From positions 1-35,330 of the forward strand of contig JAPLWO010000061.1 of NCBI GenBank assembly GCA_026396555.1: 35,330 nucleotides of DNA, read 5' to 3'. The notes below the pieces were generated by a model, which had not been told where the DNA came from, made no database searches, and saw only the letters and a list, made by a program, of their open reading frames with translations. Source of the DNA: Candidatus Magasanikiibacteriota bacterium (GTDB lineage: Bacteria; Patescibacteriota; Patescibacteriia; Magasanikbacterales; 2-02-FULL-50-9b). Both the position numbers and the translations under genes were made by a program. Below, piece by piece: positions 3,195 through 34,712 of the stretch. The stretch's first letter is position 1. Every line of letters starts with the position of its first letter.

Positions 3195-3225
3195 TGGGCG
3201 TCAAATCAAAAAAACTTACGTTCAC

Positions 3226-6648: not shown

Positions 6649-6724
6649 ATTTTTTAATCACCCATTTTACCGTCGCACACAGTTTAAAAAATGTCAACGT
6701 TTTTCGTGTGATTAACATGTGAAT

Positions 6725-6772
6725 AAAAAAATCCGACCATCTGCTCGCACGGTTTGCGAAACAAATGGCCGG
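6725..6772 (-). terminator. Rho-independent terminator of the DapD-like gene
   Basis: On the minus-strand RNA, CCGGCCAUUUG pairs with CAGAUGGUCGG (including G-U pairs) around an inner UCGCA/UGCGA stem, followed by UUUUUUU (+ strand A-run 6725-6731). The G-U pairs form only in the minus orientation. Confidence 0.6.
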
Positions 6773-6806
6773 TGTTAACCCAGAAGCGACAATTTACAAC
6801 AACAAC

Positions 6807-8033: not shown

Positions 8034-8139
8034 GGCGTGCTCCTTTTTTTGTTATGGACACAAAATCCGATGCCGTCGGACGCGGTTACGGGCAGTTTAT
8101 GGGTTTAGGCTTAAAAAGTCAATCTACGGCTTACGCACA

Positions 8140-16800: not shown

Positions 16801-16801
16801 A

Positions 16802-17527
16802 CTATTCTTTTTCTACGCGCAATTGATCAGTCGGGACTAATTTTTCTGTGAGGAAAATGTCTGGGTTGTACACGGTGTAATATAGTTCAATGAGCCCTTC
16901 CGTGTCGAGCTGCTGAACCTGCAAACCCATACTCTGCATTCCGCCTAGCACCAAATTCAAACGCAAATCCAAATCTTTTTTCTGATCAAAAAATTTTTCT
17001 TCTTTTGCACGAACCGATTTTGATGGAGATAAAACTTCTGAGAAACGCTGCCAAAAACCTTTTGCTTTATTCGATCCTGGACTAAGTGGCACGACCACAA
17101 AAAAACGCTTGCTCATGATTTGGCCCAGCTCAATTAGTTCTCGGATAAACTGTCGATAATCTGAAATCTGTGTGCGCAATAATTCATTTTTCTGCACACG
17201 TTCAGACTCTTTTAATCGATCAAGATATGAATCAATATTTAATTTACGAGACTGCACCACCACCTGAATTGGAAAATCGAGTGAGTTTAAAAATCCAACA
17301 TACGCCGCAATAATTGCGTTTTGCTCATCTTCCGACTTCAGCGCAAAATTAATCGACGAAACTAAAATCACCGCACGAATCGTTCCATCTTTCATGATAA
17401 CGGTATTGTCACGAATTTCAGCAATATCTAAATATTGCTGTGTTGAAACACTCGGCTTCGGTCCCGCCAGTTTTTTACTGTTCAGTGTTTCTACTTTTGG
17501 ATTTTCTTTTTGCGAAGGAGCAGCCAT
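16802..17527 (-). CDS. Hypothetical T4SS accessory protein resembling a stand-alone VirB4 N-terminal domain
   Basis: The pattern YLDIAEIRDNTVIMKDGTIRAVILVSSINFALKSEDEQNAIIAAYVGFLNSLDFPIQVVVQS resembles N-terminal regions of Gram-positive VirB4 homologs (from memory). No NTPase motifs. Its stop lies 1 nt before the virB4 start. Confidence 0.6.
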   Translation of the reverse strand: MAAPSQKENPKVETLNSKKLAGPKPSVSTQQYLDIAEIRDNTVIMKDGTIRAVILVSSINFALKSEDEQNAIIAAYVGFLNSLDFPIQVVVQSRKLNIDSYLDRLKESERVQKNELLRTQISDYRQFIRELIELGQIMSKRFFVVVPLSPGSNKAKGFWQRFSEVLSPSKSVRAKEEKFFDQKKDLDLRLNLVLGGMQSMGLQVQQLDTEGLIELYYTVYNPDIFLTEKLVPTDQLRVEKE

Positions 17528-17533
17528 ATTTTT

Positions 17534-17977
17534 TTATAAAACGTCTTCTGACTCAGGCTGATACGCGCCACCTGTATTTACGATGAGCGACAATTCATTC
17601 AACCGACTCGCGCCGATGAACCGTTTATGTTCCATGTGCACCGTCGGAACAGCTTGTTCAGGATTCACGAATCGTTGAATATATTCTGTACTCAAATCTT
17701 TTTGCCACACGCGCAATTTTGGTTTGCGCAGAGTTTGAATAATATTCAGTAGAAAAAAATGAAATCCTTGACCATTCACTTTTACAAATGCAACAACGAT
17801 CGTAATGATCCCAACAGGAATCGATGCAATCACAAACCAATTAAACGCAAATAACAATTTAAAAATCGCACAGATCATCACACCAACGAAAACAATGATA
17901 AATTGTCGTGGTGTAATTGGCCCTAATAACTTTGGCTCAACATCAATGAATTGTGGAATAACAAATTGCTCTGGCAT
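17534..17977 (-). CDS. PrgI-family (VirB3-like) small T4SS membrane protein
   Basis: N-terminus MPEQFVIPQFIDVEPKLLGPITPRQF followed by two TM helices, typical of the PrgI family. It sits upstream of virB4, separated from it by one small ORF (16802-17527). Confidence 0.7.
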   Translation of the reverse strand: MPEQFVIPQFIDVEPKLLGPITPRQFIIVFVGVMICAIFKLLFAFNWFVIASIPVGIITIVVAFVKVNGQGFHFFLLNIIQTLRKPKLRVWQKDLSTEYIQRFVNPEQAVPTVHMEHKRFIGASRLNELSLIVNTGGAYQPESEDVL

Positions 17978-17979
17978 AT

Positions 17980-19809
17980 TTAAGTGATATACCGAATGGA
18001 TGCAAGCAAATCACGAAGCGCTGCAATTTCATCTGGCTCGAGTGATGGTTTGCCTAATTTTTTTTCTGACGCCGCGAGTTCGTCGACTGAAGTGCCTGTA
18101 AACAGTCCCCGCTTCAAAAATTCTCGATACAAACGAATCGGCTCACATTGTTCGATCGCATGAACCGCACGAACTTTTTCACTCGGACCTTCTTGTCCGA
18201 TTACTTCTAGTTTACTCCGAATTTTTTGAATACGCACGGAAACATCTTCTGACAAGCGACGAAAATCAACCAGTGTCATGCTTGCGAGTTCATCAATCGG
18301 CCCCATCAAACGATGCCCCACATTTGGATGTGAACTTGGTCGAATATCTGTAATCTTTTTTACCTGTGCAGTCGACTGTATTGTAGAAACAGGCATCGCA
18401 CCCGGCGTCACATTCTTAGGCTTAATTGGAAAAATCGGCTGATCCGCATCAATCAACTGACGCAATTTATCCGGAATTTTTGGAACGTATTTAGGCGTTC
18501 CGCTCGTCGCAGTAATTGGACGAGCTGCAGCTGATGGGATGGTTGCAGGTACTGCCGCTGGGGCGGTCGTAACAGCAGGAATGGATGATAAAATGGGCGC
18601 CATGTGTGATTTTGCTTCTTGCCCTGGATGCGCCGCTTCTGCAGTCTGAATTTCCCGACGCGTTTCCTTTCGAATCGCCTCAACAGCATCCCGGCCAAAC
18701 ATTGATACAAAGCGTTGATTGAGTTCCCGCTGATCTGATGATGTTTTTGCTTCAGGCCCCGCATTTGCCGAACCTGTCGCATTTTTTTGTACGCTCGCGA
18801 TTTTTTCCATCACCGTAAATTCTGCACGTCTGTTTTCAAAACCACCTACTGTTTTTTCCAGTAGCGCTGCGAGTCGATTCACTTCAAACGCGCTCACGCC
18901 CAAACCACCCTGAGCCATCGGCGCACTCAGTGCCGCACGAGTTTGAACCGCATCACGTGCGCCTCCAATACGTGTGACCACAATCGATTTCCAGCGCGCC
19001 TGCATTTCTGGTGAGCGATCTGTCATTGGCTCAATCGCAAGCACCGCATCAACCAACGATTGCTGCTGAGTATTTAAAATTAATTCTTTAACCTCTGCTG
19101 CATTATTTTTTTTATCCGAAATTTCCACATGATCATCTTCGGTCAAGGCTGATTTTGGAATTGTGCTCGGATCAATCGTGCGAGTTGGTACTGCGTTTAC
19201 GGGCGCTTCCGTTTTATTTATTTTATATGCCGCGACATATTCTCGAATTTGTCGCACAACTTTTTTTGCGACATCCTCTCTAAGTCCACAGCCGCCCTCG
19301 GTAAATGCAGCGCGCAATTTTTTCTCTACTTCAGCGCGATCAAATTTTTCTGTTTTTAATACTGCACCCACAACTTCATCTAAACGAGTTGCAGCAGGAC
19401 GCGGAAGGTCGCCGACGATGTCAGAAACTGATTTTACAGCTGCATCAAAAGAAATTTCCGGTTGTATAACCTTAGAAATTTTTGAATTTACGTCGCCAGA
19501 ATATGCGGGAAAAAACCATTTGACCGGTCCGCAAATAGTGCTCAAAATTTCTTTTGCAGCAGCATCAGATTTATCCGCTGAAATTCCAACACGCGAGCTA
19601 AGCGCCCCAGAAACTGCTGTGGCATCAGGAGTAAGCGCGCGAAAAAACAACTCCCCCTCAATTCGAATAATCTCATCAAAATTTTCTTCCGTTAAATTAT
19701 ACGTTTTTACAAACACATCATTAAAATTACCCAGCTCCTCGCTTAACAAAAAGTTAACAAGCACCTTTGGTAATTCCGTAATGGTTGAAAATTGTAAGGA
19801 AGCATTCAT
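17980..19809 (-). CDS. Hypothetical 609-aa protein inside the T4SS-like operon
   Basis: Long ORF with clean coding character and no TM segment. Contains the Pro/Ala-rich linker IPAVTTAPAAVPATIPSAAARP. 9 nt downstream of the VirB6-like gene and 2 nt upstream of the PrgI-like gene. No family recognised. Confidence 0.75.
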   Translation of the reverse strand: MNASLQFSTITELPKVLVNFLLSEELGNFNDVFVKTYNLTEENFDEIIRIEGELFFRALTPDATAVSGALSSRVGISADKSDAAAKEILSTICGPVKWFFPAYSGDVNSKISKVIQPEISFDAAVKSVSDIVGDLPRPAATRLDEVVGAVLKTEKFDRAEVEKKLRAAFTEGGCGLREDVAKKVVRQIREYVAAYKINKTEAPVNAVPTRTIDPSTIPKSALTEDDHVEISDKKNNAAEVKELILNTQQQSLVDAVLAIEPMTDRSPEMQARWKSIVVTRIGGARDAVQTRAALSAPMAQGGLGVSAFEVNRLAALLEKTVGGFENRRAEFTVMEKIASVQKNATGSANAGPEAKTSSDQRELNQRFVSMFGRDAVEAIRKETRREIQTAEAAHPGQEAKSHMAPILSSIPAVTTAPAAVPATIPSAAARPITATSGTPKYVPKIPDKLRQLIDADQPIFPIKPKNVTPGAMPVSTIQSTAQVKKITDIRPSSHPNVGHRLMGPIDELASMTLVDFRRLSEDVSVRIQKIRSKLEVIGQEGPSEKVRAVHAIEQCEPIRLYREFLKRGLFTGTSVDELAASEKKLGKPSLEPDEIAALRDLLASIRYIT

Positions 19810-19818
19810 AGAAGAATG

Positions 19819-22800
19819 TTAGGGTCGCGGACCACTTAACGTAAAAATAACTCGCGCCTCACGACGTAAATTCAAATCCGGGCTGTAATGTTTAAACGCA
19901 TTTCCAACACCTGACATAACTTTTTTCTTCTGCTCTGTATTTTCAATTTTGTCAGCAATTGTGTCTGCCATGGTTTGCATTTGTGCGGATGACATCGCGG
20001 AATTTGCCAACGCTCGCTGCACACCTTCATGCGCCGCCGCTTCTGGCGCAAGATTTGCAACCAATGTTGGATCCGAATTAAACGCAGCTGTAAGATTTGC
20101 AATTTGAATGCCCGAAAATTTATGAGGACCTGTTTCCTTACCATCAACAGTCTCACGTTTTCCACCCAAATCTTCCAAATTGTATTGAACACCCTCTTCT
20201 GTTCCATGATCACGATGTGTCCATTGGCGTTTCAATTCAGTAACAACAACTGCAGGATTAATTGAGGCAAAACCTGTTGAAAGAACGTTCGTCATATCAT
20301 CTACACGACGATCAAGTGCTGGATTTCCTGAACGAGCTGCTGCAGTAACAGAGCTCAAGAAATTTGCACGATCAGCTTCTGGAACCAAACTTGCTGATTG
20401 CGCCAAATGTTCTGAAACCGCAACATCTGATCGGCCAGCCTCCAACGCACGTCGAACTTCCTGACCAATTCCTTGCGCAAGTTTTGCGTTTGCTGCCGCT
20501 AAATCTGCAGGGCTCATCGCAGTATTGTAATCGCCACGATACGCGTTCTGAATCGGTGTAACATTTGCTCGAATCTCTTGATTTTCAACTTTAGCCGCTT
20601 CAGCTGCATTTGCTGTCGCAACACGAGTCGCTTCAGCTGCCGCAGTTGCTTGTTGCCGTGCTGTTCGATCAGCCTCAGCTTGTAAATCAACTGCAGATTT
20701 TCCATCATTTCTTCCCATTACCACGCCGCCAACTACAACATTTTCGTTCAACTTATATTTATCTGTTCGATAATCCTTCAGCATCTGCTCCATTACCGCG
20801 CGTGACTGAGAGCCATCGCCTGCGGCAATTTTCTCGGCCGTAATTGCGTCCTTAACCGCAAGCTCCTGTTCATCAGTCCAGTCAGCCGCATCAGGATCTT
20901 CTTTCTTACGCTCTTTACGACGTCGTTCGAGTTCATCCTTAACACTTTTATCAAATTTAGGATCAACCAATTTAACTGCTGCTGCCAATTCGGTCTCTGT
21001 AATATCACGTTCGCCATTTGCCTTACGCGGCGCATTGAACTTTTTCGTCATCTCATGAATAAGTGCATCTGAACTGTTCAAACCTTGTTGCTTAAACAAA
21101 TCTGTCTGCGCGCTAATTCCATGATCAAGATCATTACGCGCTTTCTGAACATTTGCCTGATAATTTGCTTGCGCTTGTTTGACTGCATCAGTTTGCGCCG
21201 TGCCAATCAGCGAAGCCGCCTTCGTCAACTCATCATGAAACTGATGCACTGCGTGATCTTGATTCGCTTCTGAATGTTCATTCGCGTCACGCACCGCAGT
21301 CATCTTCTTTCCTTGTTCACCAAAACCCAAAACACCTGCAGCATTTTTTAAAGCCTGCACGCGATCTGCTTGTGCGTGGCGACCTGTCGTACCAATATAT
21401 TTTTTACTTGTTTCTGGAAGCCCTTCACCTTTTTGCGCAGTCCAATCAGCAGCTCGTTCAGCAGCACCCTGCAATCTCCGTGGAAGAATTCTACGTGCAG
21501 TTGCGGATCGCGCAAGCCCTGGCAAACGACTCGTAAGCGCCGGCGATTTTTGCGCCAATAAATCCAGCCCACGTGTTGTAAATCCACCCTCACCCTTGAT
21601 TCCTTTTTTCGTTTGGGTCCAAATACCTGCCTTGCCGCTCCATGCTTGTTTTGCAACAAAGCCTGCGCCGCGACGCGCGTAACCACTCAATTTTTTATTT
21701 GCGAAACCCGTGATTTGTTTTGCATAGCTACCAGAAATTCCAACCGCCCATTTTGCGCCTAAAATAAAAATGACAATCGGCGTAAAAAATAACGCGAGAT
21801 TTTCCCACTGAGAAATTTTTGTACCCGCGATGTCAGACGGCGCGACTTGTGATCCGGTTGCATTAACTTCCGCGAACGCCGGCGCACTAATCACAGAAAA
21901 AGCCTGGTCGCTCACCGCAATACTTGCGAGCGAAATCCACACCACAAACGCAACCACAGGACCAACCATCAATTGCGCGTTAAATGCGTGCCACCACGTG
22001 CTTTGAAATCCTTTGGTGACCGGCAACACTTTTGCAACAAACGCGAGCGGGGACGCGACAATCAAAAACCAGAGCGTCACAATACGCACCACCAATATAA
22101 TATCGAGTGAAAGCACTGCGAGAATTCCGATAAATGAAATAATCGTTGTAAATGTATTTGCCGTAATTGTTGAAAACACATTCGCCGCAAAAGCAGCACC
22201 CTTCGCAACATATTCCGCGGTAAACGCTGTTCCACCGCTTGCGGCAGATAATTGATTCCCCGCCGTTCCCAGCGCGAGTTGCACCCAGTTATCAACTTTA
22301 AAAAGTCTGATAAAATTTCCACCTGCTGTTTCCGCGAACCCACTTACAAACGTCATCATCACAACTTGTGACGCGTCGATGAGCAAACCACAAATCATTT
22401 TACTAAAATTCACGAGCAACGCCGCGGCCAAGAAATTTTTCATGAGCGCACTTGCCTGATATCCGTTAAAATCCAAAATCGTTGCAAACGCAATAACCAA
22501 CAATGCGACCACGAGAAACATGTTCGCAATATCACGCGTTACACTCCATCCAATTGTCACGATCGTCGATCCCAAAAAAGTATTGTACTGACTGATGCCA
22601 ATCAAAAAGTTGATGAGAAACAAAAAAATACCGGCAAAAATCGATACCAGCATTTTTGTTAAGAAATACAGGACAACAATCCACGTAACCAACGCACCCG
22701 CACCATCGGTCAGCGACATGACGCCTTGAATAAGCGACACAAAAACCCCATCAGCCGCATGTGCCTGTTTTGGAATCAAAAGTGCGATCACGGGGATCGA

Positions 22801-22893
22801 AAGCACGAGCGATCGAATCGCTAATTTATATTTTGAAACCAGCTCTTCCGCGCTGCGTCGTGCGATTTTAATTTTTTCTAAAAAACCTCGCAT
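19819..22893 (-). CDS. Polytopic VirB6/TrbL-like membrane protein with a C-terminal hydrophilic extension of about 630 aa
   Basis: Start set at the ATG at 22893 (MRGFLEKIK...); the tracked ORF starts at 22956. Signal-like segment ending QAHA, then at least 7 hydrophobic helices to about nt 21740, then an Ala/Lys/Glu/Asp/Gln-rich tail. The VirB6 call is inferred from topology and operon position. Confidence 0.65.
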   Translation of the reverse strand: MRGFLEKIKIARRSAEELVSKYKLAIRSLVLSIPVIALLIPKQAHAADGVFVSLIQGVMSLTDGAGALVTWIVVLYFLTKMLVSIFAGIFLFLINFLIGISQYNTFLGSTIVTIGWSVTRDIANMFLVVALLVIAFATILDFNGYQASALMKNFLAAALLVNFSKMICGLLIDASQVVMMTFVSGFAETAGGNFIRLFKVDNWVQLALGTAGNQLSAASGGTAFTAEYVAKGAAFAANVFSTITANTFTTIISFIGILAVLSLDIILVVRIVTLWFLIVASPLAFVAKVLPVTKGFQSTWWHAFNAQLMVGPVVAFVVWISLASIAVSDQAFSVISAPAFAEVNATGSQVAPSDIAGTKISQWENLALFFTPIVIFILGAKWAVGISGSYAKQITGFANKKLSGYARRGAGFVAKQAWSGKAGIWTQTKKGIKGEGGFTTRGLDLLAQKSPALTSRLPGLARSATARRILPRRLQGAAERAADWTAQKGEGLPETSKKYIGTTGRHAQADRVQALKNAAGVLGFGEQGKKMTAVRDANEHSEANQDHAVHQFHDELTKAASLIGTAQTDAVKQAQANYQANVQKARNDLDHGISAQTDLFKQQGLNSSDALIHEMTKKFNAPRKANGERDITETELAAAVKLVDPKFDKSVKDELERRRKERKKEDPDAADWTDEQELAVKDAITAEKIAAGDGSQSRAVMEQMLKDYRTDKYKLNENVVVGGVVMGRNDGKSAVDLQAEADRTARQQATAAAEATRVATANAAEAAKVENQEIRANVTPIQNAYRGDYNTAMSPADLAAANAKLAQGIGQEVRRALEAGRSDVAVSEHLAQSASLVPEADRANFLSSVTAAARSGNPALDRRVDDMTNVLSTGFASINPAVVVTELKRQWTHRDHGTEEGVQYNLEDLGGKRETVDGKETGPHKFSGIQIANLTAAFNSDPTLVANLAPEAAAHEGVQRALANSAMSSAQMQTMADTIADKIENTEQKKKVMSGVGNAFKHYSPDLNLRREARVIFTLSGPRP

Positions 22894-22958
22894 GTATGGT
22901 GAGAAAAATTGAAACTTCGTTGACAGTATAACACATTCGTGCGAAAGTACGTACAACT

Positions 22959-25002: not shown

Positions 25003-25058
25003 ACCGCAGACATATCTTTCTGAGATAACAACTCAAAGATCTGTATGCGGTCTTTTTT
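25003..25058 (+). terminator. Long-stem rho-independent terminator between convergent genes
   Basis: ACCGCAGACA...TGTATGCGGT with an inner ATCTTTcTGAG/CTCAAAGAT stem, followed by CTTTTTT. The T-run overlaps the TAA stop (25057-25059) of the giant minus-strand gene. Confidence 0.55.
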
Positions 25059-28000
25059 ATTCTTTTACAATAATATAGCCCTGGAATGGAGAGGCAGCAT
25101 TTCCATTTTTAGTAAGGTCACATTTTGTGCTATCAGCTGAAGAATCAGCCCAATACCCCACCGCATTTCCATTCGCATCAACACCATTACAAATCCCCCA
25201 ATTATCCATCAGCTGAACTTTTGGTTTAAATGCACAGAATTTCTCGCCAATATTCACAATATTTTGAAGATGAAACTGACTGATTAAAGGCCCTGTTGCT
25301 TCAACAGCGACGCCCGTTGAACTTGCTAAACTTTTTCCACCACAATCAGACGTGTATCTATATGCATGTGCAAATTGAAAGTAACCTTGTTCACACGCAC
25401 CTGCATCATTAATGCCATCTCCGCCCCATGAACCAAACGACCACTTTTTTGCATTAGGTGTTGGAGCACAGCTTCCTGTAACAACACCTGCGGAATTAAC
25501 GCAGTCTTTGTCTGTTGCACAAGTTGTATTGTAATCAACCACGCCCGCAAACGTACACGCAGTCGCCGGTTCCGTTGGAGTCGAACAAATAGGTTTATGG
25601 TTTCTAAATAATCCCTGTTTGGAAACCGCTGCACCCCCCGCATCGCCCCAATCAATTGTCACTCTTTGAATCGGCAAGTGATTGCGATCTGCTGATCCAT
25701 AGAATTTGAGTGTTGCACCCACAGATCCTTGACCTGCCACCACAGCGGTATCACCATTTTTTCCATTAATGGTCATGTCATTTTTTCGTGCAACGCGGCA
25801 AGTTCCACTTTGTACGCCCGTGCAAGAATCAGCATCAAGCGCATACACTGTTGGAGGCGCTGATATACCTGTTGCAGTTGTGTCCATAGTTAACCCTGGT
25901 GTATTTTCAGCCGATCCACTATACGCATAAAACCTAGCAAATAATTGATGGAGCGCACTTACGCCTGTAGTAAACGAGATTTTCGCTGCAGCATTTCCAT
26001 TCTCAGCACCCAAACAAAGTCCTGGACCATATTCGCAACTGTAAGCTCGTGCACCAACTGATGGAATATCAACCCTTTCTTTCCCAACATAAACAAGATC
26101 AAAAGGCGTTTGCTGCGCCGTAATAACAGATCCAAAATATTGTGATGCAAACGGAATAAATGCGTCAGATCCTTGAGCTGGCAATATAATTCCATTTTCA
26201 TTAAGCGCCAATCCCATTTCGTGATTTGTATTTTTATTCGGTGCTTGCCACAAATTATTTGTCTGCGCAGCATTTTGACCGTTTAAATCCGTTTGAACAG
26301 CCTCTGTACAACGATCAGTTAAATTAATCTTGAATTTCCAGCCAGCTTTTATCGGATTTGTTCCACCAAAAATAGCAGTTCCATCGCAAGACCCTGCAAC
26401 GAGCTCTGGAGCACTAACCAAACCACTCTTTATAATCAAATTAAGTTCGTAAACACGCTCATTGCCTCTAAATGCCATGCCCGCAGACCCAGCGCCCAAA
26501 TCAGTACAATCACCACCAGACGGACCCATTGATTTTTGAATAAAGTCAGTTCCGTTTAGACCTACAAAATCATGTATTAACATTCCATTATAGAACAGCG
26601 CAGACTGGAATGGACTATTTTGATAATTATGATTAACGATTCTCAAAAACCACACCTGATTTGCATATGGCGGGGCTTGCGGATTTCCGCCCATATCAAA
26701 ATTCGACAACAAAGTTTCAATTTCATCGTTATCAACAATTTCAGTGTGCTTTATAACCCCTGTCACTGCTTGTGCCGCAGGTTCATCAATACCATTTAAG
26801 CTCGCCGCTTGCGCAGTATTTTGCTCGCCACGAGAGCAAGAAAAATATTTCTTAACATCCACATCACCATTTCCTCCAAAATAATTATTACCTACACGCA
26901 CTGCTTTACTCAACGTCTTAAGTACATCAGATTGAATGCCAGACAATGCTGACGGATCAAGAAAATCAAAATATTGGTTTGATCCAGCATCTTTTGGTTC
27001 ACGAACCAAGCAATCACCCGTAACGCTTCCCGCAAGTGGCTCTGTTTTTTTTGTTTCATCTACCCAACCGCCATTAACATAAGATCGGATAACACCGTCA
27101 TCCTTAATAATCATCTTATATCCTTGTGGAAAAAATGAATTTTCTGCCGTCGCTTCAATTTCAATTGAATCAATATCAGAGCTATGGGTATCTACAGGTA
27201 ATTGAGCCGCTCCCAACTCTGTCGAGTAATTCACCGGAGCATCAGCAAGAACACTGTACTTTAATTCAGGAAGTGCGTATGAAAATGAAAGTTTACCCGC
27301 AGCATCCGCTTTACCCTTTCCACTGGTTGCCAAACAATACATACGGCCCTGGCCGAGCGGACCAACACTAAATCCTGCACTCGAATACTGATTATATAAA
27401 TCTGTGCTTCCCACATCAATCGGCAGCCACGTCTGACATGCACGTTCATTATTGTTACCATTTAAATGCGTTCGAAAATCTTGCTCAAGACAATATCCTT
27501 CCCAACCCATCACCTTCGTCTCCTTGGTTTTGAACTGACACGTTCCATCTTCTGGCGAATAATGATAGCTCGCATCGCTGCCAACAGCCGTCGCGTCTGT
27601 CGTTGCGCCCGCCGTAATATCCTTAATCTTTAATACACGCTCATCAATACAATCAAAATTACTTGAACATGAAAGCCCTTTCTTAGAAACTGCCAAATTA
27701 GGTTTTGCCACCTGCCCCTCTTTATCGCCGGCAACATACCAACCGCCATCACACACACCAGGTTTAATTGGTGAATTTGCCGTGTCATAATAATGAGTCG
27801 TGTTTCCTTGACCATATACAACTTTCGTATAACTACACTCACAAGAACCATTTGGAACACTCGCAGGATCAAGATCGCTAAAGCCCTGAATCTTTAAAAA
27901 ATCACTAAACGAAGTCCATGTATTCTTACCCGAAGTTGAACCGCCCGTATATTTCAACACCACGGAACGATAGGGCGCACAAATATTAACGCGTTCAAAT

Positions 28001-31000
28001 CCAGGCACAGTGGATTCAGGCGCACCAAACGAAAGTTTGCCTGAACGAATTCCCACTTCTTGTGGAAATGGCGAATCCTGTTCTGGATATCCCCGACAGC
28101 TTGATTCCACAAAACCCGTTGACGTTAGCGCATTTGCAGCAATATCTGTTCTAAATCCATCGAGTGGATACCAACATTTTGATTTTTGACAAATACCACC
28201 TGACCCGATTCCACTTCCGAAACTTGACACGATCATGTCGCCTGCTTCTTTTGAATTAAAGACATCGGCGATACAGAATTTGCCATCATGAGATAGCTGC
28301 GTGCAACCAGCGAAACTCGTTTGTGAATACCATTTATACTTTGTCGCAACAAATCCAGCACCCACCACTAATTTTCCCTGCGTTCCATCCGGGCTAAACC
28401 ACCCAATCGCATCAGGCTGAAATTTATTCCACAATGAATATCCGCTATACTCATTTCCATACCAACCAATGTTTCGGTCCACGTAATTATTCGTGCTCAG
28501 CGGCATCGCATTCGTAATGTCTTCAGTTGTCGGAACTGTATGACTCTTCGTCACCCAGTTCGCACACTGACCAATCGTGTTTGCATCTGTAGACGATTTA
28601 TCACACACACCCAAATCCGTACAAACCTGTTTGTACTTTTGCGTTGCTGGATCAAATTCAGAAATCGAGCTTTGACATGCAAGCCACTGATCACACGTGC
28701 GATCAGGCTGAACTTTTACAATCGTATTTGCATCCGCAAAACCTGAACAAATCTTCTTTAAATTATTGAAATTCGTTGCAAGTTGCGTCTGAACTGAATT
28801 GCTTAAACAATTCCCCGCAATCGGCCCACACCAGCCGCTTCCTGAATTCTGACATGCTGCATTATATTTTGTTAATTGTGTATCACAATCAGTCGCGGTA
28901 AATAATCCGATTGAATTTGCTTCCTTACAAACACCGTAATAATCCGTAGCCGGGAGCGCAGTTGTGTCTGCAACTGGAGTCACCAAACCACCATCTGTTC
29001 GAATGTCAGCAGCTGCGACTTGTGCATAGCTGAGCATCGCTGGACAGTCAGGATCAATCGTCGGATCTGATTTACAATATGACAACATGGTCGCCTTATC
29101 GCGCGCAGACTTCGATGTATCATCAAGTGCAACGCAGCCTGCTTTTAACCCGACCTGTCCACCACAAGATGTTGTATCAAGACGACTATTCTTCAAGAAA
29201 TAATATGAGCGTCCGCCTTTAACACCTTCAAGCTTATCCGCATGATCAATAAATTCAGTACACTGATCATACGTTGGAGTACACAAACCAACCACGCCTG
29301 TATACGCAGCATCCTGATTTTTATAAATTCCATAATAATTTCCACCAGAAACAAAACTCGCATAACACGGTTGATCTGTTCCCGACTTAAACCAACCAGA
29401 ATACGTCACACCTGATTTATCTACCCCGTCGCGATATTCGCATTGTTTATCTGCGGCTGGATATTTAAAGAAGCGCTGCTGTTGATCACTCGTCGTAAAT
29501 GTCTGGCACCATTCTTCTTCCTGTTTACATGATGTCGCAGAATAATTGTCAGGATTATTTATTCTAAACGTTGTTTCTAACGCACCTTTTGTAACAATGC
29601 CAAGTGCACTACATCCTTTTTTATCCGCAGGACATGATGCTGCGCTATTTGCAACAACATACACGAATTTATCAGCAGGAACAATTTTACTTACCGCACC
29701 AAACGAAACAGTAAGCGGCGTGACCTGCGCAGTGTTTTGAGTGTTAACAAACTGTTTACAACCTGCGACTTCAGCACGACATAGCCCCGTAAACCCAGTC
29801 AAATATACTTCTGTTGCACCAGAAGTAGACTGTGGTGTGTACTGATGACAATTTAATGCAGGGCCTGGAATGCTGTCATTTGGCGTTGGATCACATGTCA
29901 GTGGCGTTTTCCATGAGTTTTTTACCACGTACACAACGTCCGCTTGTTCTTTTACGACGATGTTATCGATAAAAATATTTGGTGCATTTCCAACAGGTTG
30001 AAAAATTAAGTTTGCCGCACCATCGCTCCACGGATTTACTGCAGTACTCACTTCAAAACGACGCCATTCTGGACTTACGGTCACTGCATCGGCATTTAAT
30101 TGAACTGTGTTTGGTGTTTGTGATGAGCTAAAAAATGAAACATTAACGCCTCCGGTTCCTTTTGCCCAAAATACAATATCATAAGTTTTACCTTTCAAAA
30201 CCGAAACCGAATGGTGCGCATTTGCATCGACAATTTTCAACACAGTATCACCCACTGTGATACCTTCATTTGAAATCGTGCCACCCAACCACCCATCAAT
30301 ACCAACAAACGATTCGTTCATGACAATTTTTGGACTGAGCGCTGCTGCGCCATTAAACGCGCGACAACCAGAATCTGCCTTCTTACAGCTCTGAGAACCG
30401 CTTGGTAAAATTCCATATTCACATGCACCCGTTGTCGCATCAAACGTTCCATGGCTCGCAACACAATTATTCTGATCTGACGCTAATTTACGGAATTGCG
30501 TACAGCTTGCAGATGCGATGATTGTTTTTGATAACAAACGATAACTTGCAATACCATTTTTATCAAACAATTCACGGCAATCCGAATTAAATGCTGGATT
30601 TGGCTGTCCGTTCAAAATACGGCCTTCATAAATTGTTTTGCTGCACGCAGCATTAAACGAAGCGAGCTCAGTCGAATCTACATAATCATAATGCGGCGTT
30701 GTATCTGCATCAACCTGCAAATCATGTTGGTGTAATTGATAGCCTGTTTTATCAGAACCTTCCCATGAGTAAAACAAGCCGTGATTATTTCCATCGTTGG
30801 TAATACATTTTTGAATATTTGCAAAATATTTTGTATCCCCACCACCTTTTTCTGTTGAATCAATATTTGTATATGTATCGCAGCCCACAACATCTTGAGA
30901 ACATTGTTGTGATGACGCTGGAATAAACGCTGCTGACGAAGATTGAAGCGGCTCTGTTTGTGTGGGCGCTTGATAATACGAAGCGTATCCCACACACTCG

Positions 31001-33153
31001 CTTGCACACTCATCATTCCACGCAACAACACCACCACTCGTATCTCGCGTCGCAAATGTTGCGATTCCCGGAACAGATGCATCAGAAGAACCAGTTGGCT
31101 GGTACACTTCACAACCCACTTCATCAACGGTACACGCTTTTGCATAATTACCGCACTCAGTTGGGTCGGTTGATAGGCCCTTACAACCAAGACCTGCCGG
31201 CGGCAATCTCAAATAATTCTGAACGCCTGTGTCAGAATTTTGTACTTCCGTACAACCTGCATATTGCGCTTCACACGATATCGCTTTGTCAGTTAAGTAA
31301 ACTTTAGATTGAGTTGTATCAAACGCACCTTGTTGATTGTAATCAGAATAAAATCCAAGACAGCCTGAATTTTTTGCACTGCACGAACTTGGATCAAGCG
31401 TGGATTCAATCAAACTTACATCTCCATATTGTCCATTTGCAAAAGTGCGACAGCCCGCAAATTGCGCTGGACATTGATCAATGTTAAATCGAAACGTGTT
31501 TCGCTCCCGCAAACAATAGCCATATTGACCCGTACACTGACCAGACTCATCTTCCTGCAGACAAGATGCTTCATCCGCACAAATTTGCTGACGATTTACA
31601 CTAATACTTGATTCTGGTTGCGGCCCATATACTTGCGCACGACAAATTTCTGCTGGAATTTTTAAAATCCAATTTGGATCAATCAAATGACAATAAGGAT
31701 GATCTGCATCTAGACCTCCCTGATCATTACATTTATAAAAACCGGCAACTACGTCTTTTAAGAGCACGTGATTCGCTGTCCCCGCAGTTGCTGCAGCAAT
31801 TTCCCATCCCACTGAAATAATGCGCGCTTTGCGAAGCTTTGTTAAATTGCTATAGCAATAGGCAGATTTATAACAAAACGAATCTTCATTGTGTGCGGTA
31901 TCAGTCGGTGGAATCATTTGCCAATCACCATGCAACTTTCCTTGATCAAGCGCTTCTTGTACGGAAATTGGTTTACCCGCATCTGCAACACGAACTGCAG
32001 CCGCAAAATCTCCATCCAACACGCAATTTTCTGGCGATGTAAATTTATCAGGACATGACGTAAAATTACTCAATAAATCCAAATCACCCTCAGAAATATT
32101 AATCACCTTGGTATCCGCATAAATCGCGCCGCCCGCCCCACTTGCAGTTGTTTTTCCACCATTTCCAGAACCGAAAATATTCGCTAAATTAAACTCTTTA
32201 CTTTCAGGGAGCGTCCCTTTTCCTTGCTTTAGGCGATCAATTAATTTTTTCGATAAACTATTCAACAAAGTTGTTGCAAAAATTGCAGGAATTGATTCTG
32301 CGCCAGACGCAAGAATACCTGATAACGTCTGACTTTCTTGTTGTTGCTGAAAACTCGCCGTATTCACTTTTGAATCCGCCTCAACACTTGAAGCTGGCTC
32401 AACAACCACCTTTGAAATAGGGGTCGTCATATCCATGTGCGATTTTGTTGCCAAACGTTCATTTTGTGCACGTTGCTGTTCCGCAATAATTGAAGTCATT
32501 GCGTTCATTTGCGATTTAATAACACCATCAAACTCTGTACTTCCTGATGTAAGTGCTGTTGTAAATTTTCCTAAGAGCTGCTCTGATGATAATTCATTTG
32601 TTAAGCTTTTATAACTAATCGCGATTGATCCGGCATCACAGGAGCTCCCCAATGTTTCCGTCGCAGCGCCCGTAACGGGTGCGTTAAACGGTGCTTTGTG
32701 TGCTGATTTATTCAACGCATCATAAATACCAACCACAACACCGAGACCCGCGAGCGGGTTTGGTACACACAACAAATTAGCATTCGCCAAATCTTTTGAC
32801 ATCTGATCCAGCGTAGAACTTAATGCTGCCTTTCCCTGATCAACAATATAATCACCTGGTGATTTCATGTATGCGAGCGGATTTTTTCCCTGACCACCGC
32901 TTGCAACCCAGGTCGCAATCGATTCTGCTGCTTGACGCGCAACTGTCTGACTTACATTAATCGCACCCGCAACAACAACATTTTTAAATAAAACTTTTAA
33001 TGTGCTTGAAATATATCCGGCAACCGTCTGTGCGAGTAACGCAGGATCAGTCGTCACAAGCTGCGCGCTTGCAACATTTGGCATCAACATCGAAAAAATC
33101 AACATTCCTGCGATGATCTGTCGATGAAATTTTGAAACGAGATTTCGCATCAT
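25057..33153 (-). CDS. Giant (2698 aa) secreted Cys-rich surface protein with a CBM4_9-like jelly-roll module
   Basis: Uninterrupted 8.1-kb ORF. Signal peptide MMRNLVSKFHRQIIAGMLIFSMLMPNVASA. Reiterated C-x6-C units. CBM-like segment NESFVGIDGW...NIFIDNIVVKE (about nt 29940-30340). Confidence 0.9.
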   Translation of the reverse strand: MMRNLVSKFHRQIIAGMLIFSMLMPNVASAQLVTTDPALLAQTVAGYISSTLKVLFKNVVVAGAINVSQTVARQAAESIATWVASGGQGKNPLAYMKSPGDYIVDQGKAALSSTLDQMSKDLANANLLCVPNPLAGLGVVVGIYDALNKSAHKAPFNAPVTGAATETLGSSCDAGSIAISYKSLTNELSSEQLLGKFTTALTSGSTEFDGVIKSQMNAMTSIIAEQQRAQNERLATKSHMDMTTPISKVVVEPASSVEADSKVNTASFQQQQESQTLSGILASGAESIPAIFATTLLNSLSKKLIDRLKQGKGTLPESKEFNLANIFGSGNGGKTTASGAGGAIYADTKVINISEGDLDLLSNFTSCPDKFTSPENCVLDGDFAAAVRVADAGKPISVQEALDQGKLHGDWQMIPPTDTAHNEDSFCYKSAYCYSNLTKLRKARIISVGWEIAAATAGTANHVLLKDVVAGFYKCNDQGGLDADHPYCHLIDPNWILKIPAEICRAQVYGPQPESSISVNRQQICADEASCLQEDESGQCTGQYGYCLRERNTFRFNIDQCPAQFAGCRTFANGQYGDVSLIESTLDPSSCSAKNSGCLGFYSDYNQQGAFDTTQSKVYLTDKAISCEAQYAGCTEVQNSDTGVQNYLRLPPAGLGCKGLSTDPTECGNYAKACTVDEVGCEVYQPTGSSDASVPGIATFATRDTSGGVVAWNDECASECVGYASYYQAPTQTEPLQSSSAAFIPASSQQCSQDVVGCDTYTNIDSTEKGGGDTKYFANIQKCITNDGNNHGLFYSWEGSDKTGYQLHQHDLQVDADTTPHYDYVDSTELASFNAACSKTIYEGRILNGQPNPAFNSDCRELFDKNGIASYRLLSKTIIASASCTQFRKLASDQNNCVASHGTFDATTGACEYGILPSGSQSCKKADSGCRAFNGAAALSPKIVMNESFVGIDGWLGGTISNEGITVGDTVLKIVDANAHHSVSVLKGKTYDIVFWAKGTGGVNVSFFSSSQTPNTVQLNADAVTVSPEWRRFEVSTAVNPWSDGAANLIFQPVGNAPNIFIDNIVVKEQADVVYVVKNSWKTPLTCDPTPNDSIPGPALNCHQYTPQSTSGATEVYLTGFTGLCRAEVAGCKQFVNTQNTAQVTPLTVSFGAVSKIVPADKFVYVVANSAASCPADKKGCSALGIVTKGALETTFRINNPDNYSATSCKQEEEWCQTFTTSDQQQRFFKYPAADKQCEYRDGVDKSGVTYSGWFKSGTDQPCYASFVSGGNYYGIYKNQDAAYTGVVGLCTPTYDQCTEFIDHADKLEGVKGGRSYYFLKNSRLDTTSCGGQVGLKAGCVALDDTSKSARDKATMLSYCKSDPTIDPDCPAMLSYAQVAAADIRTDGGLVTPVADTTALPATDYYGVCKEANSIGLFTATDCDTQLTKYNAACQNSGSGWCGPIAGNCLSNSVQTQLATNFNNLKKICSGFADANTIVKVQPDRTCDQWLACQSSISEFDPATQKYKQVCTDLGVCDKSSTDANTIGQCANWVTKSHTVPTTEDITNAMPLSTNNYVDRNIGWYGNEYSGYSLWNKFQPDAIGWFSPDGTQGKLVVGAGFVATKYKWYSQTSFAGCTQLSHDGKFCIADVFNSKEAGDMIVSSFGSGIGSGGICQKSKCWYPLDGFRTDIAANALTSTGFVESSCRGYPEQDSPFPQEVGIRSGKLSFGAPESTVPGFERVNICAPYRSVVLKYTGGSTSGKNTWTSFSDFLKIQGFSDLDPASVPNGSCECSYTKVVYGQGNTTHYYDTANSPIKPGVCDGGWYVAGDKEGQVAKPNLAVSKKGLSCSSNFDCIDERVLKIKDITAGATTDATAVGSDASYHYSPEDGTCQFKTKETKVMGWEGYCLEQDFRTHLNGNNNERACQTWLPIDVGSTDLYNQYSSAGFSVGPLGQGRMYCLATSGKGKADAAGKLSFSYALPELKYSVLADAPVNYSTELGAAQLPVDTHSSDIDSIEIEATAENSFFPQGYKMIIKDDGVIRSYVNGGWVDETKKTEPLAGSVTGDCLVREPKDAGSNQYFDFLDPSALSGIQSDVLKTLSKAVRVGNNYFGGNGDVDVKKYFSCSRGEQNTAQAASLNGIDEPAAQAVTGVIKHTEIVDNDEIETLLSNFDMGGNPQAPPYANQVWFLRIVNHNYQNSPFQSALFYNGMLIHDFVGLNGTDFIQKSMGPSGGDCTDLGAGSAGMAFRGNERVYELNLIIKSGLVSAPELVAGSCDGTAIFGGTNPIKAGWKFKINLTDRCTEAVQTDLNGQNAAQTNNLWQAPNKNTNHEMGLALNENGIILPAQGSDAFIPFASQYFGSVITAQQTPFDLVYVGKERVDIPSVGARAYSCEYGPGLCLGAENGNAAAKISFTTGVSALHQLFARFYAYSGSAENTPGLTMDTTATGISAPPTVYALDADSCTGVQSGTCRVARKNDMTINGKNGDTAVVAGQGSVGATLKFYGSADRNHLPIQRVTIDWGDAGGAAVSKQGLFRNHKPICSTPTEPATACTFAGVVDYNTTCATDKDCVNSAGVVTGSCAPTPNAKKWSFGSWGGDGINDAGACEQGYFQFAHAYRYTSDCGGKSLASSTGVAVEATGPLISQFHLQNIVNIGEKFCAFKPKVQLMDNWGICNGVDANGNAVGYWADSSADSTKCDLTKNGNAASPFQGYIIVKE

Positions 33154-33158
33154 ACTGA

Positions 33159-33857
33159 TTATTGTGCGGGTTGAGCAGCAGCCTGATCTGTCTGAGCTTG
33201 TTTCAATAACGCAATCAACTCGTCATCCGTCATCGCGGTCACCTGTTCTTTCGACATGCCATTTGCAATTAACGCATCTCGAATTTGTTGCGGCGTAATT
33301 GAGTTTGCTGCGTTAAATACAGCTTGCGCGTTTGCGTCCACACCTGCGGCTGGCGCCGTTGACGTTGTATTCGCGATATTTTGCAATGTTTGAACTCCTT
33401 GAACTTGTGTGATCGTCTGCTCTCCTTGTTTTGATCCGCCGGGAGCTGACGATGACGCCGCTTGCGCGGTCAATGTATCAAAAAAACAATCTTTTCCTTC
33501 TGGACATGTCGGACTCGTGCCACGACGAACTTCTTCGCCATCTGGAATTCCGTCTGAATCTGTATCGCGCATGTATGGACTGCTGTGATAGACGTACAGT
33601 TCGTCATAGTCAGATAAACCGTCGCCGTCTATGTCCTTTTTTTTCAACGCATCCATTTCATTTTGCGCCTGCTGTTCTGGACTAAGCGCCGCATCCGCTG
33701 CGAGCTTTGCTTTTACACCGTAAGAAAAAATATTTGATCTGAACTGAACACCACTCACAACAATAAGTAGCAGCGTCACTAAAACAAGTAAGCCCAGCCC
33801 GATGCGCTGACCTTTATCGAGCGTTGTTGGTTGTTCAAATTCCTGATTTTCCATCAC
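33159..33857 (-). CDS. N-terminally anchored protein with thrombospondin type-3-like calcium-binding repeats
   Basis: TM helix IGLGLLVLVTLLLIVVSGV. DIDGDGLSDYDELYVY and DTDSDGIPDGEE (DxDxDGxxDxxE) at about nt 33530-33645. Its stop lies 5 nt before the giant-gene start. Confidence 0.75.
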   Translation of the reverse strand: MMENQEFEQPTTLDKGQRIGLGLLVLVTLLLIVVSGVQFRSNIFSYGVKAKLAADAALSPEQQAQNEMDALKKKDIDGDGLSDYDELYVYHSSPYMRDTDSDGIPDGEEVRRGTSPTCPEGKDCFFDTLTAQAASSSAPGGSKQGEQTITQVQGVQTLQNIANTTSTAPAAGVDANAQAVFNAANSITPQQIRDALIANGMSKEQVTAMTDDELIALLKQAQTDQAAAQPAQ

Positions 33858-33905
33858 GTTCTTGAGGGTAAGAAGTCGTGATGTAGTATACAGGGTCGCG
33901 CGGTA

Positions 33906-34712
33906 TTACGACAAGCGTTTTAGCAACGTTATCCACTCCTCAATCGACAAAGTTTCGGCGCGACGCGTCGGGTCGACCGGCGATTCATCTTTTTTTAATC
34001 CAAGATTGTTTGCAAGCTGTTTTCGCGGACTTGAAAATCCGCGTTTGATGAGTGAAAAAAGTTTTTTCTGATCAACGTCAGCGAGTTGTGGCGCGGGCCG
34101 CGGCGTTAACCGAATAATCGCTGAATCAACAGCTGGTGCGGGCTCAAAATTCTTGCGCGTGACTGTTGTGATGTAATCAACATCGGCCGACCATTGCGTA
34201 AACAGCGCGAGCTGGCTCATGTCAGGCGGCACCGCGGCGATTCGCTCCGCAACTTCTTTTTGAATGAGCAAACAAATCACGGTTGGCGGATATTTTGATT
34301 CAATAAACTTGCGGATAATGTCGCTCGTGATGTGATACGGAATATTCGCGATAATTTTGTACGGCCCGAGCTCTGCCAAAAATTCTTCGCGTGCGATTTC
34401 AAGAATATCACCCTGAATAATCGTAAACGGAAATTTTTCTGGAATTGATTTTTTGAGATTGAGTGCAAGTTTTGGATCAAATTCAACTGCAGTCACACGC
34501 GCACCACGATCAAGGAGTGATTCAGTGAGCGCGCCGAGTCCAGGACCAATTTCAAGCACATAGTCCCCGGGCTTTACATCTCCAGCTTCGATAATTCTCG
34601 TCAGCGGCTCTGGATTAATTAAAAAATTCTGACCATTACCGCGCGATGGTTTCAGCCCGAGTTTTTTCACGCGCGCGATGACCCAATCCTTGTTGTAAAT
34701 TTGTGTATTCAT
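33906..34712 (-). CDS. rsmA: 16S rRNA (adenine1518/1519-N6)-dimethyltransferase RsmA/KsgA
   Basis: GQNFL motif (NGQNFLINP) and SAM-binding LEIGPGLGALT. Start set at the ATG at 34712, forming an ATGA overlap with the tsaC stop. The tracked ORF starts at 34745. Confidence 0.9.
   Translation of the reverse strand: MNTQIYNKDWVIARVKKLGLKPSRGNGQNFLINPEPLTRIIEAGDVKPGDYVLEIGPGLGALTESLLDRGARVTAVEFDPKLALNLKKSIPEKFPFTIIQGDILEIAREEFLAELGPYKIIANIPYHITSDIIRKFIESKYPPTVICLLIQKEVAERIAAVPPDMSQLALFTQWSADVDYITTVTRKNFEPAPAVDSAIIRLTPRPAPQLADVDQKKLFSLIKRGFSSPRKQLANNLGLKKDESPVDPTRRAETLSIEEWITLLKRLS

Follow-up and report, generated by a model that had tools for sequence, protein, structure and literature searches.

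The stretch of DNA analysed here, called the window, consists of the 35,330 nucleotides (nt) of contig JAPLWO010000061.1 from a metagenome-assembled genome (MAG) of “Ca. Magasanikbacteria”. It encodes on its reverse strand a secreted, Cys-rich protein of 2698 amino acids (aa), which we refer to as the giant (25057..33153; locus tag NT003_02850). By its sequence, the giant is a member of a large, formerly undescribed family of disulfide-rich secreted proteins in the Patescibacteria. Its gene and the gene immediately upstream, which codes for a small protein with TSP3-type repeats, here called the partner, make up a conserved two-gene unit that is well supported by comparison of gene order, and genes for a type IV secretion system (T4SS) are usually located next to this unit. 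We give roughly even chances to the reading that the giant and its partner are a secreted, disulfide-stapled and glycan-binding host-contact component of the Gram-positive-type T4SS of the Patescibacteria.

The giant gene and its family

The giant is encoded by a single open reading frame (ORF), as had been claimed in an earlier reading of the same DNA, hereafter the original prediction. The ORF starts with ATG and contains 2698 codons without an internal stop. The probability of such a long open frame arising by chance at ~43% GC is ~1e-70, as calculated from the base composition, and the predicted mass of the protein is ~290 kDa. The protein with a 100% match to the giant (P0001), annotated as a “hypothetical protein” at NCBI, originates from the contig of the window itself. 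P0005 and P0011, two homologs from assemblies independent of this one, span 100% of the giant from end to end, and the fetched loci contain 63 full-length, collinear homologs with a median length of 2781 aa. Since full-length homologs are collinear with it, the gene is judged to be intact, and these homologs argue against the frameshifts and the chimeric join that the original prediction had named as possible objections. A chimeric assembly or a pseudogene in decay is thus hardly conceivable as the source of the ORF: the contig stems from a metagenome assembly, and the giant gene is broken into ORFs of about 1500-1600 aa in two other loci (L010 and L063), but the frame in the window is uninterrupted, complete homologs are numerous and collinear to both ends, and the Cys columns are kept along the entire protein. 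The split genes in L010 and L063 could themselves be explained by a frameshift, an assembly error or a pseudogene.

The giant is not an oddity of a single genome. An exhaustive HMMER scan with aa 1-1200 identified relatives in at least 1,320 clusters at 50% identity, 1,102 of them at E<=1e-30; the matches listed are all about 2.2-3.9 k aa long, most of them 2.5-3.9 k aa. A conserved peptide pattern was found in at least 321 relatives among the species-representative genomes. The 83 homologs identified at E<1e-65 are all 1.8-3.7 k aa long, and every named one is a “hypothetical protein” from the Patescibacteria, including Magasanik-, Uhr-, Kerfeld- and Parcubacteria. The nearest relative is ~55-60% identical to the giant. 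No match to the conserved core was obtained in tblastn searches of phage and plasmid collections, and an origin from mobile elements is therefore not supported. Neither the family nor its Cys scaffold, its partner or its adjacency to a VirB6-like gene has been reported in the literature searched, in Pfam or in NCBIfam. Many of the species-representative MAG records that contain the locus (L011, L013-L016 and others) are titled “uncultured Gammaproteobacteria bacterium”, which is an evident mislabel.

The giant contains 96 Cys residues, corresponding to 3.56% of all residues, which are few at aa 1-360 and ~1950-2430 and many elsewhere. We mapped conservation along the protein in an alignment of 83 sequences, in which a Cys was considered conserved if present in >=80% of the members. 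With this definition, 77 of the 96 Cys residues are conserved, and from aa 504 to 1340 most of them are invariant. The high Cys content, to which the original prediction had drawn attention, is thus not a mere compositional bias and is indicative of a structural scaffold. About a dozen of the conserved Cys residues belong to a repeated motif, C-x5-G-C-x2-[FY], with flanks that resemble beta-strands.

Architecture of the giant protein

The giant was divided into ten segments based on the alignment and on two AlphaFold2 (AF2) models that cover aa 1-1200 and aa 1500-2698, each inferred from 26 sequences. The segments are listed from the N-terminus to the C-terminus, with the predicted local distance difference test (pLDDT) score where a model contributes to the assignment; a slash marks the putative signal-peptide junction.

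25057..33153, reverse strand: whole giant gene, 2698 aa
33064..33153, reverse strand: aa 1-30, Sec-type signal peptide, PNVASA/Q (read from the sequence and the junction in the family)
32083..33063, reverse strand: aa 31-357, N-terminal Cys-poor domain, all-helical in the AF2 model (pLDDT mostly <50)
31654..32082, reverse strand: aa 358-500, mixed alpha/beta block, the most conserved in the family (pLDDT ~80)
30334..31653, reverse strand: aa 501-940, Cys-rich beta region I with C-x5-G-C-x2-[FY] hairpins, nearly all Cys invariant (pLDDT ~80 from aa 620)
29899..30333, reverse strand: aa 941-1085, beta jelly roll similar to carbohydrate-binding modules (CBM) of families 4/9/16/22, with bounds estimated from a Pfam match at aa 983-1039 and the beta block in the model
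29104..29898, reverse strand: aa 1086-1350, Cys-rich beta region II, hairpin motif as in region I (alignment, AF2)
28714..29103, reverse strand: aa 1351-1480, poorly conserved stretch of variable length (conservation map)
27304..28713, reverse strand: aa 1481-1950, Cys-containing region III of moderate conservation (conservation map)
25870..27303, reverse strand: aa 1951-2428, variable module between conserved flanks (alignment, distances between anchors)
25060..25869, reverse strand: aa 2429-2698, conserved C-terminal beta domain (pLDDT ~85)

The N-terminus shows the n-h-c layout of a Sec signal peptide when read from the sequence, and it ends with PNVASA/Q, as first described in the original prediction. 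The PxxAxA/Q junction is kept across the family, with a Gln at position +1 in 134 of 255 N-termini, suggesting that the signal peptide is cleaved off. A Kyte-Doolittle scan identified no segment of transmembrane (TM) grade beyond the N-terminus, also in agreement with the earlier reading, and the single borderline stretch is located at aa 125-143. The domain that follows the signal peptide starts with QLVTTDPALL in the putative mature protein and contains a conserved ASGGxGQxPL motif and the Cys pair C129/C172. The alpha/beta block is characterized by the motifs CP..NNCV.D, YCYSNL.KLRKARI.P.GWEIAA and HPYCHLIDPNWVLK, and region III by DR.C.EWL.C, CRGYPE.DSPFP, GW.GYCLE.D and ACLTWLP.D.

The variable module shows only 20-30% identity even to the closest homologs, which are ~60% identical to the giant elsewhere. 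Its length, as measured between the conserved anchors, is mostly 239-1166 aa with a median of 561 aa and a single outlier of 6 aa. The C-terminal domain contains the motifs AD.N.MPI..V.VDWGDG and P.VQV.DNWGWCNG. A copy of this domain (WGDG ... DNWGWCNG motifs; E 9e-19) is present in a 438-aa protein encoded downstream of the giant in another locus (L007:19077-20393), suggesting that it is an autonomous module.

The mean pLDDT score is 63.8 for the model of aa 1-1200, with values of ~80 for aa 360-500 and 620-1200, and 60.4 for the model of aa 1500-2698, in which the C-terminal domain reaches ~85. The sole domain that could be recognized in the giant is the CBM-like module, as the original prediction had proposed. 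The match of the giant itself to CBM_4_9 (PF02018) at aa 983-1039 is sub-threshold (E 0.014, 16.2 bits, compared to a cut-off of 25.9 bits), but three homologs score above the cut-off at the equivalent position (P0048 with 33.4 bits, P0034 with 30.9 bits and P0022 with 26.8 bits). Consistently, a Foldseek search of PDB with the model of aa 1-1200 identified 2zex_A (E 2.6e-7, template modelling score of 0.67 relative to the target, root-mean-square deviation of 3.8 A over 149 columns) along with many other CBM4/16/22 structures. The local pLDDT score of the jelly roll is ~80-90. No other fold in PDB was matched by this model. Cry and Vip toxins were also retrieved, with template modelling scores of 0.15 on both sides, and these matches were rejected since they probably reflect the same beta-sandwich. 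One homolog, P0048, contains an additional F5/8 type C domain (discoidin, galactose-binding; Pfam) at aa 1775-1897, which probably lies in or near the stretch that matches aa ~1351-1480 of the giant and would mean that a second lectin module was gained specifically in this lineage.

Several domains of the giant have no sequence or structural relatives in Pfam, NCBIfam, PDB or BFVD. Searches of NCBIfam and PDB with the sequence of the whole giant retrieved nothing, and profile searches of PDB gave no significant match for aa 31-357, the alpha/beta block or the C-terminal domain. For the alpha/beta block, the only hits, to a designed repeat protein (E 0.014) and to a sigma factor (E 0.56), were regarded as chance matches. 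The model of aa 1500-2698 had no Foldseek match below E 0.1 in PDB or BFVD. The sole S-layer protein retrieved by Foldseek, 8cka_B, was dismissed as insignificant (E 0.18), and matches of 45 C-terminal domains to Dickkopf_N, Nodulin_late and DUF7107 in Pfam were scattered and typical of noise from Cys-knot families. The WGDG ... V.V.DNWG pattern recalls a PKD-like domain, but the PKD models in Pfam did not match. Thus, no confident homology to a characterized family, which the original prediction had stated would remove the novelty, was found in Pfam, NCBIfam, PDB (sequence and profile) or with Foldseek against PDB and BFVD.

The partner gene and the T4SS neighborhood

The giant gene is preceded by the partner gene, as had been described, with the stop codon of the latter located 5 nt ahead of the ATG of the giant.

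33159..33857, reverse strand: partner, 232 aa, with an N-terminal TM helix, two TSP3-type repeats, a CPEGKxC loop and a helical tail (Pfam, TM scan)
33885..33914, reverse strand: promoter-like site TTGTCG-18-TATACT just upstream of the partner (consensus match only; the count of such sites is no higher than in shuffled sequences)

The two repeats in the partner match TSP3_bac (PF18884) with E 1.7e-8 and 34.6 bits, compared to a cut-off of 25 bits. An alignment of six orthologs from six loci shows that all contain the TM helix, two invariant DxDxDGxxDxxE calcium-binding motifs and the CPEGKxC loop. The partner gene is located directly upstream of the giant in 83 of the 84 loci with upstream DNA, and the gap between the two genes has a median of 9 nt and is <=30 nt in 64 of 81 loci. 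The two genes may be co-transcribed, and the partner may serve as an anchor for the giant.

The best NCBIfam matches to the partner, MtsD and CglD of Myxococcus, involve the TSP3 stretch only and score 25 bits, compared to cut-offs of 400-800 bits.

The T4SS-like machine mentioned in the original prediction is encoded on the same strand as the giant, in one block that contains VirB4, PrgI/VirB3, TrsD and VirB6-like genes, with genes for RadA, RecG and a ComF-like protein nearby. This organization fits with the MPF_FATA-like locus of the Patescibacteria.

14821..19809, reverse strand: T4SS core excluding the VirB6-like gene (Pfam, NCBIfam; same gene order in L001 and L005)
19819..22956, reverse strand: TrbL/VirB6-like protein, 1045 aa with 8 TM segments, first gene of the T4SS block (TM scan, Pfam matches of homologs)
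17980-19809, reverse strand: 609-aa T4SS-locus protein between the VirB6-like protein and PrgI
17534-17977, reverse strand: PrgI/VirB3-like protein (PrgI E 2.4e-7)
16802-17527, reverse strand: TrsD-like protein (NCBIfam E 5.4e-6, sub-threshold)
14821-16800, reverse strand: VirB4-like ATPase (P-loop_TraG E 5.6e-26)
4784-6127, forward strand: RadA/Sms, flank of the T4SS block
9274-11340, reverse strand: RecG, flank of the T4SS block
13801-14400, reverse strand: ComF-like phosphoribosyltransferase, flank of the T4SS block
22959-23987, forward strand: APH-family kinase, between the VirB6-like gene and the giant
24128-24982, forward strand: lipoprotein-like protein, 284 aa with 4.9% Cys, between the VirB6-like gene and the giant, raised GC (0.55)

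The assignment of the 1045-aa protein is based on matches to PF04610 (TrbL/VirB6) in 10 of 35 homologs, the best of which has E 3.6e-5. The protein is comparable to the essential 1088-aa protein SEML1_0013 of S. epibionticum, the gene for which is also followed by PrgI and VirB4. The 609-aa protein has no TM segment and no match in Pfam or NCBIfam, and its counterparts in other loci, which are 570-750 aa long, are conserved between the VirB6-like gene and PrgI. T4SS loci in the class ABY1 have been described as co-localized with competence and recombination genes (PMC12102498).

The neighborhood is conserved across orders. Of the 53 loci for which the DNA downstream of the giant extends over at least 4 kb, 35 have a VirB6-like gene there on the same strand, at a distance of 120-420 nt in several of them. 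The order KsgA, TSP3 gene, giant, zero to four variable genes, VirB6-like gene, ~600-aa protein, PrgI, TrsD and VirB4 is found in loci from different orders, and the complete series from the giant over the VirB6-like gene and the ~600-750-aa protein to PrgI, TrsD and VirB4 is present in Kerfeldbacteria (L005) and in L001. The slot between the giant and the VirB6-like gene contains, for example, toxin-antitoxin pairs or Peptidase_M23, HD and PEGA genes in other loci. A rearranged order is seen in L042:5252-18049, where a VirB6-like gene (1054 aa; E 2e-59 to the copy in the window) is followed by genes for a 300-aa protein, a 23S-rRNA-IVP-family protein and the giant (2753 aa). In this locus, neither the TSP3 partner nor KsgA or VirB4 was found within 10 kb, and tRNA synthetase genes are located downstream.

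Further genes of note are located towards the other end of the window. They include the DsbA-like enzyme that the original prediction had pointed out, the gene for which is located directly upstream of a gene for a pilin-SLT fusion protein.

346..1056, forward strand: membrane-anchored DsbA-like oxidoreductase with a CESC active site (Thioredoxin_4 E 2.8e-21, DSBA E 8.6e-10; Pfam)
1059-3194, forward strand: exported protein with a Cys-rich N-terminus (36 Cys), a T4SS_pilin domain (VirB2-like, PF18895) and an SLT lytic transglycosylase domain (Pfam)
3007-4770, forward strand: exported protein with a weak T4SS_pilin match and Peptidase_C39_2 (Pfam)
6208-6648, reverse strand: MazF/PemK-like toxin
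6807-8033, reverse strand: THDPS-like acyltransferase ORF, GC spike of 0.57 at 7001-8000, overlapped by a 328-aa ORF on the opposite strand

The other exported proteins in the window contain 3.6-5.1% Cys, as compared to 0-0.7% for the cytoplasmic and membrane proteins of the T4SS, suggesting an extracytoplasmic set of disulfide-bonded proteins. It is plausible that the DsbA-like protein catalyzes the formation of the disulfides in the giant. The pilin-hydrolase fusions at 1059-3194 and 3007-4770 look unusual, and the latter protein probably starts later, since its ORF overlaps the preceding one by 188 nt. The stretch at 6208-8108 may be foreign DNA.

Proposed function and known systems

We propose that the giant would be exported by Sec, cleaved at the signal peptide and thereby become extracellular. 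Residues ~360-1950 would form a rigid scaffold, stapled by some 40 conserved disulfides, many of them in C-x5-G-C beta-hairpins, and carry the CBM-like jelly roll, which may bind glycans. The variable module at aa ~1950-2430 would be placed distal to the scaffold, with the conserved beta domain at the C-terminus. The giant would be made together with the small bitopic partner, the two TSP3-type repeats of which are predicted to be extracellular and to bind Ca2+, and the partner may keep the giant on the cell surface after cleavage. The pair could then serve as the adhesin or contact arm of the neighboring ABY1-type, Gram-positive-like T4SS, and recognition of the host envelope by the CBM-like and variable modules would allow the T4SS channel to engage the host cell. 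Export and cleavage, disulfide formation (in view of the DsbA-like gene in the window), anchoring by the partner and binding to glycans or the host are inferences, and a functional coupling to the T4SS is deduced from the gene neighborhood. Since the Ca-binding partner is constant and the T4SS is usually adjacent, the giant is probably the missing host-contact arm of the T4SS, and the CBM-like module, the discoidin domain in P0048 and the variable module fit with an adhesin or host-contact role. The original interpretation of the giant as a candidate adhesin or host-interaction factor thus stands with regard to the intact gene, the two-gene unit, the T4SS neighborhood and the lack of a characterized homolog, and is conjectural with regard to adhesion, surface location, anchoring and co-transcription. 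S. epibionticum, the only lineage in which this has been tested, requires the homologous T4SS core for its epibiotic growth (PMC10633639).

Several observations weigh against this proposal. The giant lacks a sortase motif, an anchor at its C-terminus and any known adhesin domain, as judged from the sequence, Pfam and NCBIfam. The structural models are mostly of low or moderate confidence, and the rigidity of the scaffold is deduced from the conservation of the Cys residues. No VirB6-like gene was found within the available 4-6 kb downstream of the giant in 18 of 53 loci, and Saccharibacteria, in which the sole genetically tested T4SS is found, have no giant at the corresponding place. In the window, the giant is outside the T4SS operon, since two genes on the opposite strand intervene. 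Moreover, the region with Sua5, KsgA, RF-1 and GroEL is equally syntenic in the lineages examined, and the adjacency to the T4SS may therefore partly reflect a conserved gene order.

The last of these observations leads to an alternative that we consider possible, if distinctly less probable, namely that the giant serves these ultra-small, monoderm cells as a general envelope protein, such as a coat, fibril or S-layer-like protein, which acts independently of the T4SS and has its neighbors simply because of the chromosomal order. This explanation is in line with a very large, core-gene-like family of constant length with a strongly conserved scaffold, with upstream neighbors that are housekeeping genes in conserved order, and with the genes on the opposite strand that separate the giant from the T4SS block in the window and in other loci. 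However, the link to the VirB6-like gene has been kept in L042 despite a rearrangement that broke the link to KsgA, and several loci have the giant and the VirB6-like gene directly next to each other on one strand. Variable and lectin-like modules are also more typical of a protein involved in recognition than of a lattice protein, and no match to SLH or S-layer families was obtained in Pfam, NCBIfam or by sequence in PDB.

A more specific proposal, which we regard as unlikely, is that aa 31-357 of the giant represent a divergent VirB5/TraI(DUF4141) minor-pilin domain that docks on a pentamer of the VirB6-like protein, so that the giant would take the place of the missing VirB5 in the Patescibacteria T4SS and act as a stalk or pilus-tip subunit with an enormous adhesin. 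In its favor, the mature N-terminus in the window, QLVTTDPALLAQT, resembles that of VirB5 in A. tumefaciens, ARA/QFVVSDPATEAETL, where the mature protein starts with QFVVSDPATE. Homologs of the giant start with, for example, QLVVSDPITG, QLPVTD or GIPVVD, and a motif of the type Q-[FLI]-[PV]-V-x-D-P is present in many, but not all, members. PF13605 (DUF4141) is the sole recurrent Pfam match to the N-termini (5 of 56 at E<=1, best E 3.3e-4), and this model has been recorded on bona fide VirB5 minor pilins. In the giant itself, it gives E 0.0025 and 17.6 bits for the N-terminal segment and E 0.0085 and 15.9 bits for the whole protein. All PF13605 matches are, however, below the Pfam cut-off of 30 bits, and they are partly located over the signal peptide. 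A hidden Markov model (HMM) of the VirB5 N-terminus ranks one giant first of 1,961 background ORFs (E 6.9e-4), a weak enrichment, but gives only E 0.38 for the giant in the window. Hhalign of a 56-sequence N-terminal profile aligns just 15-16 columns, with probabilities of 1.6% for one VirB5 and 5.4% for a 55-sequence VirB5 alignment; PF07996 gives no match, and neither does the N-terminal profile in PDB.

Gene order is also consistent with the VirB5 proposal, in that the giant gene precedes the VirB6-like gene just as virB5 precedes virB6, and the window contains VirB2-like pilin genes. TraJ is the VirB6 counterpart in conjugative transposons of Bacteroides. DUF4141 is found there also on a protein encoded beside TraJ (PMC10434189), and the VirB5 pentamer is placed on the VirB6 pentamer and located at the pilus tip (PMC9259494). 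For the native T4SS of the Patescibacteria clade, no VirB5 has been reported, and the one VirB5 homolog in the survey of these T4SSs is from a genome with a Gram-negative MPF_T-type system (PMC12102498). Against the proposal, some family members have 20-60 residues ahead of the motif, the AF2 model of aa 31-357 is of low confidence, and the giant is 12 times the size of VirB5. Since the Pfam matches are sub-threshold, the hhalign results insignificant and the HMM enrichment weak, VirB5 is kept as a minority hypothesis and the giant is not assigned to this family. If the hypothesis were true, oligomers of the N-terminal domain would bind to the VirB6-like channel protein or to the end of a VirB2-like pilus. 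The stapled scaffold, the lectin modules and a variable module specific to the host, ~2,300 residues in all, would extend outward from there. Such a tip adhesin would exceed all known ones in size by an order of magnitude, and it would set the host cell that is engaged by the T4SS of the epibiont.

Finally, the size, secretion, variable and CBM-like modules of the giant, as well as the SLT and C39-like lytic enzymes encoded in the window, might bring to mind a secreted polymorphic toxin or a lytic or predatory enzyme (RHS/YD-like, glycan-degrading) that damages host cells, but this is very improbable, since searches with Pfam, NCBIfam, PDB profiles and Foldseek matched no family of RHS/YD proteins, toxins, glycoside hydrolases or proteases, the variable module lies inside the protein and its last 270 aa are conserved, which is the reverse of polymorphic toxins, and no small, immunity-like gene is conserved downstream in the loci compared.

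Patescibacteria represent a large share of bacterial diversity and apparently live attached to host cells, and we know of no cultured representative of the lineages that carry the giant. With its lectin-like and variable modules and its Ca-binding partner, the giant is a concrete candidate for the missing contact element of the T4SS in hundreds of species. The variable module may provide a handle for the prediction of host range and the CBM-like module for the discovery of ligands.

Among the known systems, modules of the CBM 4/9/16/22 family (PF02018) resemble the jelly roll predicted at aa ~941-1085 of the giant, the structural model of which can be superposed on CBM16 and CBM4, as described above. 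This jelly roll is, however, placed in a giant, non-enzymatic protein, and the copy in the window is below the Pfam threshold. Likewise, the partner appears to share TSP3 Ca2+-binding repeats with the Myxococcus proteins MtsD, which is involved in cell-cell cohesion, and CglD, a lipoprotein involved in gliding motility, but it is a bitopic protein of 232 aa with only two repeats and matches far below the cut-offs. VirB5 has a role as an adhesin, and the minor pilins VirB5, TrbJ, TraC and CagL resemble the giant in their Sec signal, a short N-terminal motif similar to that in many, but not all, members of the giant family, the helical domain and the location of their genes by a VirB6-type gene; however, they are ~220 aa long, whereas the 2698 aa of the giant include ~2300 aa of unrelated Cys-rich, extracellular modules.

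The prgA-C genes are located upstream of the channel genes in pCF10. The PrgB or aggregation-substance adhesins of such MPF_FATA systems are large, secreted to the cell surface and endowed with a lectin-like module for binding to polymers of the envelope, all of which is also predicted for the giant. Surface adhesins are a usual requirement of Gram-positive T4SSs, and PrgB-type adhesins mediate cell-cell contact for a system that has no diderm outer-membrane complex, as is proposed here for the giant (PMC12857230). PrgB shows no homology to the giant in sequence or domains and differs in having a polymer adhesin domain and an LPxTG motif, both of which are absent from the giant, the C-terminus of which (...PFQGYIIVKE) has no hydrophobic tail. 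The giant is also about twice as large, Cys-rich, presumably stapled by disulfides and equipped with a dedicated TM+TSP3 partner, and it is encoded on the chromosome and conserved across a bacterial class, whereas PrgB is plasmid-borne. In a survey of T4SSs in the Patescibacteria, no PrgB-like adhesin was found and the giant family is not mentioned (PMC12102498).

Proteins of a similar general class are known from the Peribacteria, which belong to the CPR (candidate phyla radiation) and in which large, Cys-rich extracellular proteins of ~1,655 aa on average, with signal peptides and 7% Cys, were proposed to function in attachment (PMC4736985). As compared by description only, these proteins share with the giant their large size, Cys-richness, signal peptide and occurrence in small genomes of host-dependent bacteria that encode a disulfide-bond protein (PMC4736985). 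They are, however, encoded by multi-copy, strain-variable clusters and show weak similarity to FG-GAP and Myxococcus repeats, whereas the giant is represented by one conserved gene in the loci examined and has a fixed architecture, a partner and a position beside the T4SS. Thus, large Cys-rich exported proteins were already known from CPR bacteria in general terms (PMC4736985), and what is new here, as judged from the literature searched, is the giant family with its scaffold, its partner and its adjacency to a VirB6-like gene.

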